A DNA stretch of 64,000 bases, from the NCBI GenBank assembly GCA_964016885.1, contig OZ024740.1:84444001-84508000 (forward strand), written 5' to 3'. Source of the stretch: Eledone cirrhosa. Taxonomy: Eukaryota. Numbering within the stretch: the stretch's first letter is position 1; each line of letters begins with the position of its first letter. Of the stretch, positions 12,354 to 61,813 are shown piece by piece. Under the pieces are notes generated by a model. The model saw only the letters and a list, made by a program, of their open reading frames with translations. It was not told the DNA's origin and did not search any database. The position numbers and the translations under genes were made by a program.

Positions 12354-13148
12354 TATACAACGAACCACGTTGATATAAATAATTATGTTGAGCTGTAGAC
12401 AGAAGGAACAAATGATATTATTGAGCTACACAATTTGCCAGCTCAATTATGGCTGATGGTTTGGTCAGAGGGAAATATATTTAGATAATCCTGTAGCCGT
12501 GAAAAGATTTCAAGGCATAGATTATGTTAATTGTTGAAATAGAAAAGAATTACATGATAAATAATGTAAATAACATGTCTTCTTAAGATGAACACAATAA
12601 ACTTTATCTTAATTTTGCATGTCCTATTATTTAAAACTTCGAGACTGCAACTACAACTTTTCAAACTTCAAATGTTTATATTACAAAAGTCTATGGAGAA
12701 CTCCGGCAGATAGAATATACAAGCTATATAAATTGGGGAGAACTTTAATGACATCTTTCATATGAGAAAAGTGTTGACTCTATGCTAGAAGCAATAACCC
12801 CAACTAAAGCAATAAAATGGCTCAGACGTTTGAACGTGTTTTGGAAAAGTCCAAACGATTTATAACCGACACAATGGAAATTACTTAAAAATCATATGAG
12901 TTTTCTACACAGGATGTCAACAGACTTGAAAGTATTCATTCCAATTACTACTTCATCTTTATAACTAAGGGCTTCAAATATTTGATCATGTTGAAAGAAG
13001 TATGTATGTGCAGTCAAGGTCATACACAGCACGATTATATGCACCAACGAGGTGCTGCTTTACCATATCCTACATAGGAAAATTAGTCTCCTTACTTTTG
13101 GGACAAACCTCGTATATATACACACACGTGCGCGCGCACACACACAAA

Positions 13149-13189
<41 letters not shown>

Positions 13190-13403
13190 ATCCGTCCAAC
13201 ATATGATAGTGTGGATATTACACTTAAAATGAAGGTGGTCATATATTTTGCATTTATCAACTATATGTTTAACTTGACAAATCCAATTACATACACCAAG
13301 CCGACTTTAAAATGTAAACTTGGGGTTTTGTTGTGTATTTTAAATTGTACACACACGCACACACACACACACAGACAGACACACACACACACACACAGAC
13401 ACA

Positions 13404-13502
<99 letters not shown>

Positions 13503-13527
13503 TATATACATATATATATATATATAT

Positions 13528-13760
13528 ATTGAGTTAGAAACTCAAAATAGTCTTTTACAAGTAAATAGCTCAAAGAAGGGAATCTTTCCGAGCCGTGTAA
13601 TATAATTGAATATATGAGAGGGATGAACACCAGTTCAAGTATACATGTGTTCGAATTGTAAATGACAAAGTTAGCTAGGTTGAAAAATACTAATTTAAAA
13701 CAATATGGTTTGCCTGACTCGATTTAAAGTAATAAATCAATAAAAATAACAAACCTATAT
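13528..13760. repeat. Diverged partial copy of the 16393-16912 monomer
   Basis: TTGAGTTAGAAACTCAAA..TAGCTCAA..GCCGTGTAATATAATT shared. Confidence 0.75.
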
Positions 13761-13779
13761 TGGGCAATATATATTTATA

Positions 13780-13875
<96 letters not shown>

Positions 13876-13876
13876 C

Positions 13877-13968
<92 letters not shown>

Positions 13969-14022
13969 ATACATATATATACATATATATAGATAGATAT
14001 ATGAGTGTATGCTTACACACAC

Positions 14023-14064
<42 letters not shown>

Positions 14065-14073
<9 letters not shown>

Positions 14074-15750
14074 GATGATTAACAAGGATAAGCGATATAA
14101 TAGATAACGTTGAAAGAGATAGAAGTTTAAACAATGCAAAATTGACTGTAAGATGAAGTAACGAAAAGTAAAAGTTACCTGCTAATTTTCGTTTTGTTTT
14201 GTTGTTCTTCTTCTTTATCTCTCCAATATTTCGGGACCTAAAACTCCCTTCATCGGGGTTTAAGGAGCCTTCAGTGTATAATGTTCCAATTTCCTCTCTT
14301 TGGAATAAAATTTTGATTTTGTTTAAAATGTTTTCTAAGTCGTTTTCAAGCGTTTTTCGATGGTTACTTCGCTTTCCACGTGAATGACGTCAATAGCCAA
14401 TATAGTATTTTGCGAAATCAATTTTCTTTTTTATATAAGATGTTTGTGTACCTGTGTATGTGTCTTTTTATGTCAAGTACTGTGTGTTGAGTTCTAATCT
14501 ACTATTTATTTGCGGGCTGAGTCGATGTATGAGCAAGGCTTCCTTAATTTTTAAGTTGCCCACACTTATATCACTGGCTTTAATGGTAACGGTAATATAT
14601 TGGTTGATATTTCGACATTTGTCAATGTGTTTTTTTAATGAGGATGCGCGTGTGTTGAGGTGTTCTTTAATACGAGTGTGGAGTGATCGAATCGTGTTCC
14701 CAATGTAGAACTCCTTACATTTGTTGCATTCAATCTGGTACACCACATATGTCCGCTGGCACATACCGGTATCGAGGATTGGGCAATTAGTCAGCGAGAA
14801 TTTATTGTTGTTGTCTCTGGATTGCTTTTGAGACAGATATCCACGGAGTGAAGGGCCGGAGTGTGCTAACTATATGTCCAGTCCTTCTTTGCGGATAGCT
14901 CTGTGGATAGCTGTGGCTATGCTTTCGCTGAAATGTGGTAATTTCATGAAGCAGGTGCTGGAAGTGGTCTTATGTCTGTGGCGCCTTCGATTTTTAAGTC
15001 GATTCATTGTGGATCTTGGACATCCGTTTGTTTTCAGTACATCTATGAAGTGTGCAGTGTGAGTGGTCTGGTCCTCTGTCTTGCTACATGTATTCCGGAT
15101 ACGCGTAAGTTCATTTCTTATGTATCCGGTTTTAGCACCAAAAGGAAGCACTGATATATAAAGCACAAACAGGTCTCTGCTGACAGCTTTCTTATAGATG
15201 TTGGTGTATATAGTATCCGTTACTCTAAGTTGGAAGTACAGCAGAGACAAGGAACCATTTTTATCAGGGTGTTCTGTGGTAAATCGTATGTTGTTATCTG
15301 TGTTTGAAAATGCCGTAGATATTATGTCGGCCTCTTCACAGGATGATGTAAGGATGAGTATATCATCTGTGTATCGGGTGAAGAAAACACAGGAACGGCA
15401 GCTTTTGAGCGCTCGACGTTCCAGTTGATTCATATAAGGTTTTATTCCAAGCATTAACATATGTTTCACCGCTTAATATGCAATTAATCGTCTTGAAACC
15501 GCTATCGTCAATAGTTGATACGTTATTGCAAAATTCGATTTTAAATAGACAAAACAATGCAGTCACTAGGCGAATTATCAAAATATTGATCAGCAACACA
15601 ACGGTTTTATACCAAATAACATAAACATCAAAATGAAAAAAAAAACCGTTGTGTGGCTGACGATAGCGATTTCAAGACATAATTAATTGCCTGTTAATGC
15701 GTGGAATAAAACTCGATTATATCGCTTATCGGTGTTAATCCTCCTTTTAC
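14065..15750 (-). mobile_element. 5'-truncated Penelope-like element with inverted terminal segment
   Basis: RYTDDILIL RT motif (14870-15469); GIY-YIG VVYQIECNKCKEFYIGNT..RIKEH (14468-14764); 14068-14102 is inverted at 15716-15748; HHR-like CCGATGAAGGGA..TCCCGAAA at ~14228-14255 (-). Confidence 0.85.
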
Positions 15751-15916
15751 CAGTTATTGATACTCCAAGAACTACTAAACACGGAACTTTCAGGGATCAA
15801 CCCACCGAAAAGCTAAGTTAGCATCATGTTGTGTCAACTAGCGCCGCATGTCGAAATTCCTCGGTACAGATTACTCGAAACCTTAGATGACTTTAAGCGA
15901 TATCTCATTTCATTTG

Positions 15917-15952
<36 letters not shown>

Positions 15953-16103
15953 ACAATGTTATTCTTCTGTTTTATTGCTTTTGAATAAATTAGTTTTGGA
16001 ATATGTGCTAGAAGTGTAGGTTGTTGATATTGGGAGGAGGTGGGGGGATGATGCTAGCTCACATATTTACTTCCCTACATGTAAACATACATACAGCCCA
16101 TAT

Positions 16104-16238
<135 letters not shown>

Positions 16239-16322
16239 AGTTATTCCGGGTTGAATCGGAGGTAACCACAGTAAGTAAGGTACTCAATACATAGCAGAGT
16301 ATAAAAGTTTTAATATAGAAGA

Positions 16323-16371
16323 GATTCTACAGGACTAGAACTGTTTCATTCGTGAGAAATCATCAGGAATC
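16323..16371 (-). ncRNA. Type I hammerhead, canonical core
   Basis: GATTC-CTGATGA-tTTCtcacGAAt-GAAA-CAGttctagtcCTG-TA-GAATC; mutated copy (CTGATCA) at 50461-50505 (+). Confidence 0.65.
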
Positions 16372-16392
16372 AGATATATATATATATCTATA

Positions 16393-17249
16393 TCAAAAGT
16401 ATATATTGAGTTAGAAACTCAAAGTAATCCCTTACAATTAAAATAGCTCAAGGAAAAATTTTTCCGGGCCGTGTAATATAATTCGATATAATAAAGAGAG
16501 ACCAACACAGATATATACATATATGTGTTCAAATCATAAGGGACCAGATTCTCTAGGGTGAAAACGATACTAACTATGAACAATACGGTTTGCCAGACGT
16601 AATTAAAAGAATAAATTAAGAAAAAGTACAAACCGAATTTGACAACTATCAAATACACATCCAGACAGTCTTTGGCAAAACTGTTTCGCATCAAGGGAAG
16701 GTAATTACCAATTCAATTGCTCGTCAGTGGATGTACGAATTAGTAAACCCTTCGCTTCTAGGTTTCCTAGAAGACTAAACGAGGCTCGTGTTTAGAATAA
16801 CACCCATGGTATTCAGTGCCTAGCGTGTCTTGTAAAACGTATGCTACTAAAAATAGCAGCCAGGTTTACTCGACATTTAAAAAAGCTCTACAAATTCAAG
16901 GAGCCGATTTATGCAAAGTATATATTGAGTTAGAAACTCAAAGTAATCCCTTACAATTAAAATAGCTCAAGGAAAACATTTTTCAGGGCTGTGTAATATA
17001 ATTCAATATAATAAAGAGAGACCAACACAGATATATACCTATATGTGTTCAAATCATAAGGGACCAGATTCTCTAGGGTGAAAACGATACTAACTATGAA
17101 CAATACGGTTTGCCAGACTCAATTAAAAGAATAAATTAAGAAAAAGTACAAACCGAATTTTAATACCCTATTCACCCTAGTGAATCTGGTCCCTTATGAT
17201 TTGAACACATATAGGTATATATCTGTGTTTGTCTCTCTTTATTATATTG

Positions 17250-17258
<9 letters not shown>
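16393..17258. mobile_element. ~520 bp HHR-bearing monomer: ~1.5 tandem copies plus inverted partial
   Basis: 16393-16640 recurs at 16913-17160; 17172-17255 is its reverse complement; (TA)n flanks. Confidence 0.85.
16657..16734 (-). ncRNA. Canonical type I hammerhead ribozyme
   Basis: ACATCCA-CTGACGA-GCA..TGC-GAAA-CAGTTTTgccaAAGACTG-TC-TGGATGT: 7 bp stem I, stable stem III, GUC site. Confidence 0.85.
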
Positions 17259-17288
<30 letters not shown>

Positions 17289-17433
17289 TATAAAAATATA
17301 TATATGTATGTATGTATATATACTTACACATATATATATATACACATACATACACACATATATCCACATATCCACACATATATATACACATACATACACA
17401 CATATATACATATATCCACACATATATGCATAC

Positions 17434-17572
<139 letters not shown>

Positions 17573-17679
17573 CAATTAAAGAGAGTTAGTTGGTTTACAA
17601 TCAGCCGAATTTATATAACAGAAGTGAAGCACTCAACGGTATATGTTTATACGGAGTTTTGTTATAATAAGTGTATCTA

Positions 17680-18415
17680 TTTTAGGCACAAGGCCAGCAA
17701 TTACCCAGGACATTACTGGTACTTTATTTTATCGACCCCATAAGGATGAAAGGCAAAGTTAAACTCGGCGGGATTTGAACTCAGATCATAAAGGGACGTA
17801 ACTCTATGGTTATAATAATTGTTTCTACTTTTGGCACAAGGCCAGCAATTACCCAATGCATTACTGGTACTTTATTCTATCGACCCCGGAAGGATGAAAG
17901 CCAAAGTTAACCTCGGCGGGATTTGAACTCAGATCATACAGGGAGGTAACTCTATGCTTCAAAGCATGGCATCCGATCCTCTACCGATACTGCCAATCCA
18001 CCGCCTTATAATGCTTATAATAATTGTTTCTACTTTTTGGCACAAGGCCAGCAATTACCCAGTATATTACTGGTACTTTATTTTATCGACCCCGTAAGGA
18101 TGAAAGCCAAAGTTAACCTCGGCGGGATTTGAACTCAGATCATACAGGGAGGTAACTCTATGCTTCAAAGCATGGCATCCGATCCTCTACCGATACTGCC
18201 AATCCACCGCCTTATAATGCTTATAATAATTGTTTCTACTTTTTGGCACAAGGCCAGCAATTACCCAGTATATTACTGGTACTTTATTTTATCGACCCCG
18301 TAAGGATGAAAGGCAAAGTTAACCTCGGCGGGATTTGAACTCAGATCGTAAAGGGACGTAACTCTTTTCGTCAGGCATGGCGTCCGACCCTCTACTGATA
18401 CTGCCAATCCATCAT
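17680..18415 (-). mobile_element. Four tandem SINE copies
   Basis: Units ~17680-17808, 17812-18006, 18018-18211, 18222-18415, partly joined by TTATAATGCTTATAATAAT. Confidence 0.9.
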
Positions 18416-61056: not shown

Positions 61057-61813
61057 TAATAATAATATTTTCGAATCAGCGAGCGAGTTTGAAATTATTA
61101 TAAATGTAAGCTATCGCCGTATTTTGACTGAAGAAATTAAAGAAATTATTTAGCCTGATAGTGGGGTTAAGAACCCTCGGAGAAATGGAAAAAGATGAGT
61201 ATTGACGTACATGGGAGTCGAACCCATATCTTTGGTTATCCAAACCACTGTGCTACCATTTACAGCAACACATCACCCGTCTTTTTCCATTCAAATTAGA
61301 AGTTATAATCTTAGCAACTGTAATGTCAAGTAATAATTGTTTCTACTTTTGGCACAAGGCCAGCAATTACTCCAGTGTATTACTGGTACTTTATTTTATC
61401 GACCCTGTAAGGATGAAAGGCAAAGTTAACCTCGGCGGAATTTGAACTCAGAATGGCAAGGGCCGTAACTCTATGCGTCAAAGCATGGCGTCCGACCCTC
61501 TACCGATACTGCCAATCCAAGTAATAATATTTTCGAATCAGCGAGCGAGTTTGAAATTATTATAAATGTCAGCTATCGCCGTATTTTGACTCCCATGTAC
61601 GTCAATACTCATCTTTTTCCATTTCTCCGAGGGTTCTTAGCCCCAATATCAGGCTAAATAATTTTTTTAATTTCTTTAGTCAAAATACAGCGATACATTT
61701 ATAATAATTTCAAATTCTCTCGTTGATTCGAAAATATTATTACTTGACATTACAGTTGCTAAGATTATAGCTTCTAATTTGAATGGAAAACGACCGGTGA
61801 TGTGTTGGTGTAA
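61057..61813. mobile_element. ~270 bp tRNA-like monomer: tandem plus fold-back, split by a SINE (61332-61519, -)
   Basis: Unit start recurs at 61521-61590, inverted copy 61588-61813; SINE TSD CAAGTAATAAT; relative starts at ~63948. Confidence 0.8.
61203..61274 (-). pseudogene. tRNA-like cloverleaf (72 nt)
   Basis: Acceptor GATGTGT/GTACGTC, anticodon arm GTGGT-TTGGATA-ACCAA, T arm ATGGG-TTCGACT-CCCAT. Confidence 0.55.

Follow-up and report, generated by a model that had tools for sequence, protein, structure and literature searches.

Retrozymes are a proposed route by which small RNA circles made by ribozymes are written into animal genomes, and to our knowledge the copying step itself has never been shown. 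The type I hammerhead repeats of animals are described as non-long terminal repeat (non-LTR) retrozymes expressed as both linear and circular RNA (Cervera and de la Pena 2020, PMC7229834), and it has since been argued that retrozymes derive from the pseudo-long terminal repeats (pLTRs) of Penelope elements (Li, Clavereau and Pollet 2026, bioRxiv 10.64898/2026.07.22.740005). Penelope-like insertions take the form of 5'-truncated partial tandems with an inverted 5'-truncated neighbour and a bias towards microsatellites, and in the Hydra clade of these elements canonical hammerheads occur in families that insert into (TA)n (Craig et al. 2021, PMC8557442). Here we describe a 520-nt repeat with a type I hammerhead found in a 64,000-nt stretch of the 3.0-Gb genome of Eledone cirrhosa (contig OZ024740.1, hereafter C1; C1:84444001-84508000), the whole of which we call the window. 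We think it likely that the window holds one old insertion of a dispersed, non-coding 520-nt family with a conserved type I hammerhead, and that the family's RNA was copied into (TA)n by a Penelope-like enzyme.

The window copy, read on the minus strand, consists of (TA)n, an inverted arm, u356-520, a full unit u1-520, u1-83 and a TA-rich repeat, where u denotes a position in the 520-nt unit and q a position in the 866-nt layout (Table 1). In lengths this amounts to an inverted arm followed by 0.3 unit, one full 520-nt unit and 0.16 unit. The roughly 1.5 units with an inverted tail reported in a preliminary description of this DNA were borne out by alignment: 16454-16640 and 16974-17160 are 96% identical at a spacing of 520, the direct repeats align over 246 nt at 97.2%, and the inverted arm (98 nt) is 92-94% identical to both direct copies of u423-520. 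The older copy that had been reported nearby is also there, 76% identical at 13523-13755 on the minus strand; it comprises only the last ~235 nt of the layout, and no hammerhead was found in it by R1, a covariance model built on 30 family copies (set 1, below). The same model found a single hammerhead in the 1.5 units of the window copy. The earlier term "tandem monomer" is overstated, the locus being a dispersed insertion with one hammerhead and not a local tandem array; for that reason the window copy alone could not release a unit-length RNA. The statement that no open reading frame (ORF) is present has to be corrected, as a 90-amino acid (aa) ATG ORF is open at 16419-16691 (minus); it is private to the window copy, and where the ATG occurs in other copies (12 of them) the frame extends for only 9-29 aa. 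Divergence inside the copy is 3% between direct repeats and 6-8% between arms. With one hammerhead, a weakened stem II and 3% repeat divergence, the window copy is most likely an old, inert, dead-end insertion and, taken alone, an ordinary locus: an old and probably dead copy in intergenic, microsatellite-rich DNA.

The hammerhead itself (16657-16734, minus) was confirmed by direct reading, with the 7-bp stem I, CUGACGA, GAAA, 8-bp stem III and GUC previously assigned to it. From 16734 to 16657 the minus strand reads ACAUCCA-CUGACGA-(33 nt)-GAAA-CAGUUUUGCCAAAGACUG-U-C-UGGAUGU, and with stem I open and stems II and III closed it is a type I motif. The core C3-U4-G5-A6-N7-G8-A9 is complete and G12-A13-A14, the A15.1-U16.1 pair (A16684-U16665) and the NUH triplet GUC were all found, every invariant core base being in place. 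R1 matches the motif with 98.7 bits over 16651-16739, and the minimum free energy (MFE) structure of the isolated 89-91 nt is the three-way hammerhead junction at -18.7 kcal/mol; self-cleavage is predicted between 16664 and 16663. The designation "fully canonical" applies to the core and not to stem II, which is atypical in having a 25-27-nt loop with a small hairpin of its own; the motif drew no match from the Rfam hammerhead models at E<=10. In the window copy stem II is weak, consisting of GCA/UGC (3 bp closed by G-C), a bulge, 1 bp and a 27-nt loop, with a one-base loss (GAUGC for AAUUGC) that is common to its subfamily.

A count of genomic copies, as proposed in the preliminary description, returned 3,726 first-look places with the 866-nt layout as query, and the 40 of these that were scored all match, at 79-91% identity and on many contigs. 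The exact hammerhead pattern (core plus helix-proximal bases) occurs at 230 places (113+117) against 0 for the reversed control pattern. Two motifs at unit spacing were found at 4 exact places against 0 in the control; L098, for example, has two hammerheads 518 nt apart. Two samples were drawn from the family: set 1, 30 copies picked by whole-element similarity and unbiased as to motif, and set 2, 32 loci picked by hammerhead motif. Each of the 30 set 1 copies has one hammerhead, and R1 identified 70 motifs in 97 sources, other subfamilies included. The unit is 520 nt long, 35% G+C and non-coding (the sole ORF being the 90-aa frame, which is not conserved), with one R1 match per unit.

We read this family as an animal non-LTR retrozyme, and it fits that class. 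Like the metazoan non-LTR retrozymes, it has a non-coding, AT-rich unit of a few hundred nucleotides in which a single type I hammerhead occurs, it is scattered through an animal genome rich in Penelope-like elements, and its 520 nt lie inside the 51-972 bp of published metazoan consensus lengths. The described retrozymes form tandem arrays, from dimers to large multimers, whereas here we see mostly 0.9-1.7 units with one hammerhead, and only 4 double places. The helices also differ, since coral hammerheads have typical helix sizes, and invertebrate-like helices III have ~2 bp and a tetraloop, in contrast to the 25-27-nt loop II and 8-bp stem III found here. With the Hydra-clade Penelope elements the family has in common 5' truncation, partial tandems, a neighbouring copy that is inverted and 5'-truncated, (TA)n as the target, and a non-coding part that contains a hammerhead. 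Unlike Penelope-like elements in general, it has no ORF and no sequence in common with the 34 Penelope loci sampled in this genome, and its stem III is long where that of the minimal Penelope hammerhead is not. The hammerheads of newt satellite 2 and of the axolotl (PMC7229834) similarly have an open stem I and a canonical core inside a repeat, but they have a helix III of 1-2 bp and work as dimers, whereas the 8-bp helix III of the present family is predicted to act intramolecularly. Plant LTR retrozymes (PMC4918200) are likewise non-autonomous, non-coding retroelements with hammerheads, thought to spread via circular RNA; they carry type III hammerheads in their LTRs, a PBS (primer-binding site) along with a PPT (polypurine tract), 4-bp duplications and more than 55% G+C (PMC7229834). 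These plant traits were not seen in the 520-nt family, where no search for a PBS or PPT was made. The family adds to this class a retrozyme with an unusually large hammerhead stem II.

The core is fully intact in 20 of the 30 set 1 copies, the other 10 having single substitutions or a deletion, as expected because copies decay. N7 is the sole hammerhead core position known to be free to vary, and here it is C in 13, A in 11 and U in 6 copies, a non-majority fraction of 56.7% compared with 3.9% at the 12 core sites, 10.2% at paired and 22.4% at other unpaired positions. U16.1 and C17 are unchanged in all 30, and conservation at the level of the core was matched by only 12 of 20,000 random 12-column sets. 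Pairing in set 1 holds in 90-91% of cells, as compared to 24-40% with the partners slid, and covariation is 0.095 as compared to 0.061 after shuffling, with no higher value in 500 shuffles. Among 69 distinct model-aligned sequences, compensatory two-sided changes affect 13 of the 25 pairs (again 0/500 shuffles higher) and are located in stem I, distal stem II and stem III; for instance, pairs in stem I swap AU/UA (42/25) and CG/UA/AU (39/20/1), and pairs in stem III swap CG/UA (40/15) and UA/CG (45/5). One copy (L029) with a stem I of ACAACCA/UGGUUGU represents an independent compensatory event, and several such events are visible despite subfamily inheritance. The extended stem I (ACUA with UAGU) is invariant in the family, and of the stems only I and III emerged when RNAalifold was run on a MAFFT alignment. 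Core conservation, covariation and the 230 exact motifs against none in the control sustain the earlier view of the motif as genuine, now at the level of the family. Judging from these sequence patterns, we conclude that the hammerhead has been maintained by selection in the lineage that produces new copies.

The way in which the copies are inserted points to the enzyme. In set 1 the 5' starts are spread continuously from q1 to q389 and the 3' ends are fixed: 21 of 30 copies, that of the window included, end at q866 (A-type, ...ACUUUUGA, ~u85), 8 at q783 (B-type, ...UUGAAUUAUAU, u520) and one at a third TA-rich site, u485. At least four TA repeats lie within 30 nt of the end in 27 of 30 copies compared with 7.5% of control windows. 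Direct arms measure 0.9-1.5 units, mostly more than one, and pass from u520 to u1 without a seam. Directly at their 5' end there is, in 21 of 30 copies, a second arm, inverted and 5'-truncated, which has a 3' terminus of its own that faces (TA)n. All the traits of Penelope-type insertion are thus present, namely 5' truncation, a partial tandem, an inverted 5'-truncated neighbour and a microsatellite target. The contrast that had been drawn with minimal Penelope hammerheads is correct as to the long stem III and misleading as to the element, because the insertion architecture is exactly Penelope-like. Alternatively, a SINE-like element (short interspersed nuclear element) might have been moved by a long interspersed nuclear element (LINE) with a simple-repeat tail, the hammerhead being a passenger. 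LINE/SINE pairs also show 5' truncation and a 3' microsatellite, and ORFs with RVT_1 only lie near some copies (e.g., L002 and L059). We regard this scenario as very improbable, since the copies exceed one unit and show no seam at the unit junction, two to three alternative 3' ends are in use, the genome is rich in Penelope elements, and an inverted arm with its own 3' terminus at (TA)n occurs in 21 of 30 copies; this last feature is unlike L1 twin-priming, where the inverted stretch comes from upstream in the same RNA.

The two arms of a copy do not end alike. Among the set 1 copies with an A-type direct arm and an inverted arm (n=15), the outer end of the inverted arm lies at u520 in 9, is aligned to u485-u517 in 5 and is unplaced in one (L010); an extension of this arm into u1-89 is seen in none of them. 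All six inverted arms of the copies with a B-type direct arm are A-type, reaching ~u85. The chance of such a split with fixed margins, L010 excluded, is 1 in 38,760. In set 2 the end types differ in 15 of 15 placed two-armed copies, with L038 a possible exception and 4 copies unplaced; 13 of the 15 were typed from the blast table, and L034 and L097, apparent exceptions with both ends B-type, were reclassified by eye because the arm continues in diverged sequence, such that the end-type counts as a whole rest on blast tables together with inspection. No break occurs in the direct arms at either the hammerhead cut site or the unit junction, and the template was therefore not a cleaved linear monomer.

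These observations lead us to propose, tentatively and with less than even confidence, that a two-armed copy is the fossil of a single integration in which (TA)n ends were primed on one circular 520-nt RNA and copied by rolling-circle reverse transcription, the alternative partners of loop II (below) acting as a switch between the fold that is cut and the fold that serves as template. The mechanism that we envisage for the family would start from transcripts of rare source copies with at least two hammerheads; cleavage by each of these after GUC would release a unit-length RNA, which a host ligase would close to a circle. (TA)n would then be cut by a GIY-YIG endonuclease/reverse transcriptase of Penelope type. 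Both TA-ended DNA 3' ends set free in this way would pair with a single template, at UA-rich sites that differ and lie 85 nt apart; such a template would offer each UA-rich site once, as a unit-length circle does. Each primed end would be extended into complementary DNA (cDNA) around the template and across the hammerhead site for up to ~1.5 turns, and the joining of both cDNAs would yield the direct and the inverted arm. If this is true, the rule of different ends would be the first direct genomic read-out of a Penelope-type enzyme copying a ribozyme-made RNA circle. The rule may instead have its origin in a different phase of the two nicks in (TA)n, each phase fitting one site, or in some other constraint on a multimeric linear template. 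In any event, a footprint that can be counted, with fixed TA-rich starts, arms at different sites and cDNAs over the cleavage site, constrains the mechanism.

A further alternative is that the template was a long multimeric or read-through linear transcript, on which reverse transcription started at internal UA-rich sites and fell off early, the hammerhead playing no part in making the template. In its favour, direct arms cross the cut site uncleaved, double-hammerhead copies are rare (4 as compared to 230), and Penelope elements form partial tandems without a proven circle (PMC8557442). A multimer could, however, give both arms one end type because it contains several copies of each start site, and the types differ in 20 of 20 placed copies of set 1 and 15 of 15 of set 2 (two by eye). 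Few genomic sources would provide a transcript of more than 1.5 direct units, and core conservation with covariation shows a hammerhead under selection in the copy-making lineage. We therefore hold a linear template to be unlikely, and a good deal less so than the passenger scenario considered above.

Several results weigh against the insertion of a selected hammerhead family by a Penelope-like enzyme, or against the route by way of a circle, the first group of them concerning the fold and its conservation. The z-score of the isolated window motif is only -1.3 to -1.5 and the hammerhead structure makes up 3% of the ensemble; isolated family motifs have z-scores of -1.0 to -4.0, and in 7 of 12 of them the MFE is a competing fold that pairs loop II (UUGGUAA) with loop III (UUACCAA). 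The MFE of the whole 520-nt unit does not contain the hammerhead fold, loop II being paired instead with a conserved UACUAAUUC directly 5' of stem I. The expectation that the motif should fold as a monomer accordingly stands for the isolated 89 nt and not for the whole unit or for the 7 members with the competing fold. Rfam hammerhead models gave no match in the window at gathering score, none in 13000-18000 at E<=10, and none among the best 150 of 181 Rfam rows in four family-motif loci; the Rfam scans otherwise gave microsatellite-driven miRNA-like rows and one tRNA. The long insert in stem II is the likely cause of this miss, and because Rfam models miss hammerheads with a large stem II, motif-based censuses likely undercount such elements. 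The alignment of 69 sequences (A3) was model-fitted, with 32 members picked by a pattern that fixes the core, and its independent covariation events are fewer than its cell counts because inherited subfamily changes are included. Conservation along the unit is even (0.8-0.9) with a peak at u434-493 near the B-type end, and the hammerhead is therefore no conserved island. A look-up of sequencing runs for the stretch listed no RNA run that contains it, and only one run, of unknown kind, matched, with 0.47 of its words. Copies able to act as sources of unit RNA are rare, given the few double motifs, and the arm identity within loci (81-96%, as compared to 87-97% for direct repeats) does not separate one template from two.

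With regard to the fold, it might thus be asked whether the hammerhead-like motif is a matter of chance or a dead relic within an ordinary satellite or a foldback DNA element, as the missing Rfam match, the weak z-scores, the whole-unit MFE and the inverted repeats of the window copy could be taken to indicate. Set against this are the 230 exact motifs versus 0 in the control, a core that varies by 3.9% versus 57% at N7, the compensatory changes in 13 of 25 pairs, and copies that are dispersed and 5'-truncated with arms of variable length and fixed 3' ends, and we give this explanation very little credence. Loop II (GAAUUGGUAAUUC in the family) was observed to have three mutually exclusive conserved partners, namely its own hairpin, the 5' flank UACUAAUUC and UUACCAA of loop III. 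The 9-bp complementarity between the stem I 5' flank and loop II has 92.6% of cells paired and no covariation (63-96 of 500 shuffles were as high), and it may be a tertiary contact of pseudoknot type or an inactive fold that competes with the hammerhead, if it is either of these. The complementarity of loops II and III is conserved as well, and covariation was looked for there with none seen. As a set, the three partners may constitute a conformational switch or a pseudoknot contact.

The second group of adverse results concerns the partner that a non-coding family inserted by a Penelope-like enzyme would be expected to have. In favour of such an enzyme, ORFs with RVT_1 plus GIY-YIG at the C terminus are present in the genome, and more than 10,596 GIY-YIG first-look candidates were found; the Pfam cut-off was passed by every one of the 150 for which a score was computed. 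At 4 of the 63 loci with screened flanking ORFs (L007, L024, L027 and L040), a retrozyme copy has GIY-YIG fragments no more than 1.5 kb away. On the adverse side, no R1 match at E<=0.01 was found in 34 Penelope loci, i.e., the 30 top GIY-YIG loci (L062-L091) and four with long ORFs (L092-L095), and blast of L062-L091 yielded only stray family fragments, at 3 of the 30. The Penelope 3' untranslated region (UTR) beside the retrozyme copy of L007 has no significant similarity to the 520-nt unit. A UTR common to the retrozyme family and Penelope loci was looked for in the 30 top loci and L092-L095 and none was found, and blastx of retrozyme loci against Penelope-locus ORFs gave mostly unrelated repeat matches. 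The long-ORF loci L093-L095 have short 3' UTRs with internal CA/TA repeats, and the family hammerhead was not found in them. An autonomous partner may well exist, since only 34 of the more than 10,596 candidates were sampled. Two candidates were rejected: the two motifs 2.7 kb apart in L061 are separate insertions with no reverse transcriptase ORF between them, and in L040 the retrozyme copy has next to it a Penelope fragment that belongs to an element of its own, likewise 5'-truncated.

Table 1. Positions of the window copy, its hammerhead and related features (window coordinates unless a locus or contig is named; u and q as in the text).
Feature	Position	Strand	Description
(TA)n microsatellite	17253-17284	.	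adjoins outer end of inverted arm; target-site repeat; like arrangement in other copies
Inverted 5'-truncated arm	17160-17257	+	reverse complement of u423-520; outer end is the B-type terminus (u520 = q783)
Direct partial unit u356-520	16996-17160	minus	5'-truncated start of direct arm; 97% identical to 16476-16640
Full 520-nt unit u1-520	16476-16995	minus	35% G+C; holds the sole hammerhead of the window copy
Partial third unit u1-83	16393-16475	minus	ends at A-type terminus ...ACUUUUGA
TA-rich microsatellite	16374-16392	.	3' of direct arm
Older 5'-truncated copy	13523-13755	minus	q625-859, 76% identical, between microsatellites
Type I hammerhead	16734-16657	minus	direct read, isolated MFE, R1 model match
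Stem I 5' strand ACAUCCA	16734-16728	minus	sequence read
Core CUGACGA	16727-16721	minus	sequence read
Stem II region, 33 nt	16720-16688	minus	sequence read
GAAA	16687-16684	minus	sequence read
Stem III	16684-16665	minus	8 bp including A15.1-U16.1, one G-U pair, loop GCCA
C17, end of GUC	16664	minus	predicted cut between 16664 and 16663
Stem I 3' strand UGGAUGU	16663-16657	minus	7 bp with 16734-16728
Small hairpin UGAU-AGUU-GUCA	16640-16651	minus	directly 3' of stem I; read off alignment A4
Loop II	16701-16716	minus	complementarity with flank and loop III
5' flank of stem I, loop II partner	16735-16743	minus	complementarity
Loop III, loop II partner	16671-16680	minus	complementarity
Hammerhead pairs in the genome (G000)	C1:141648660-141648976, C3:277973655-277973932, C3:298707168-298707596 and five more	minus/plus	exact pattern
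Penelope 3' UTR with minimal motif	L007:2196-2640	minus	
Penelope 3' UTR with minimal motif	L071:814-1229		
Penelope 3' UTR with minimal motif	L053:760-1057		
Penelope 3' UTR with minimal motif	L045:821-1309		
Long Penelope-like ORF, 938 aa	L093:3809-6622	minus	RVT_1 + C-terminal GIY-YIG
Long Penelope-like ORF, 748 aa	L095:2276-4519	+	RVT_1 + C-terminal GIY-YIG
Long Penelope-like ORF, 1096 aa	L094:1275-4562	+	RVT_1

Several further features were noted in the course of this work. One Penelope-like family has a minimal hammerhead-like motif in its 3' UTR (CUGAUGA, a 6-bp stem II, GAAA and a very short helix III) and ends in (TA)n; it shares microsatellites with retrozyme copies, the two placed tail to tail, and its representative in L007 is a pair of GIY-YIG fragments in inverted orientation. 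Exact family hammerheads also occur as head-to-head pairs 200-950 nt apart, always minus then plus, and these pairs are two-armed copies in which both arms reach the ribozyme. The small hairpin that adjoins stem I on its 3' side (4 bp, AGUU loop) is found at the matching position in 44 family members (A4) and covaries by subfamily (UGGU..ACCA, GGC..GCC, UGAU..AUCA and UGAC..GUCA), as read from the alignment and not from a formal pair count. The longest direct arms (those of the window, L006 and L011) begin directly past this hairpin, at u355-360. Elsewhere in the window, a 148-nt unit in two tandem copies, 91% identical, occupies 17661-17956, just past the CA/TA microsatellites that flank the element, and a tRNA at 61203-61274 (minus, 37.5 bits) is the only Rfam match at gathering score.

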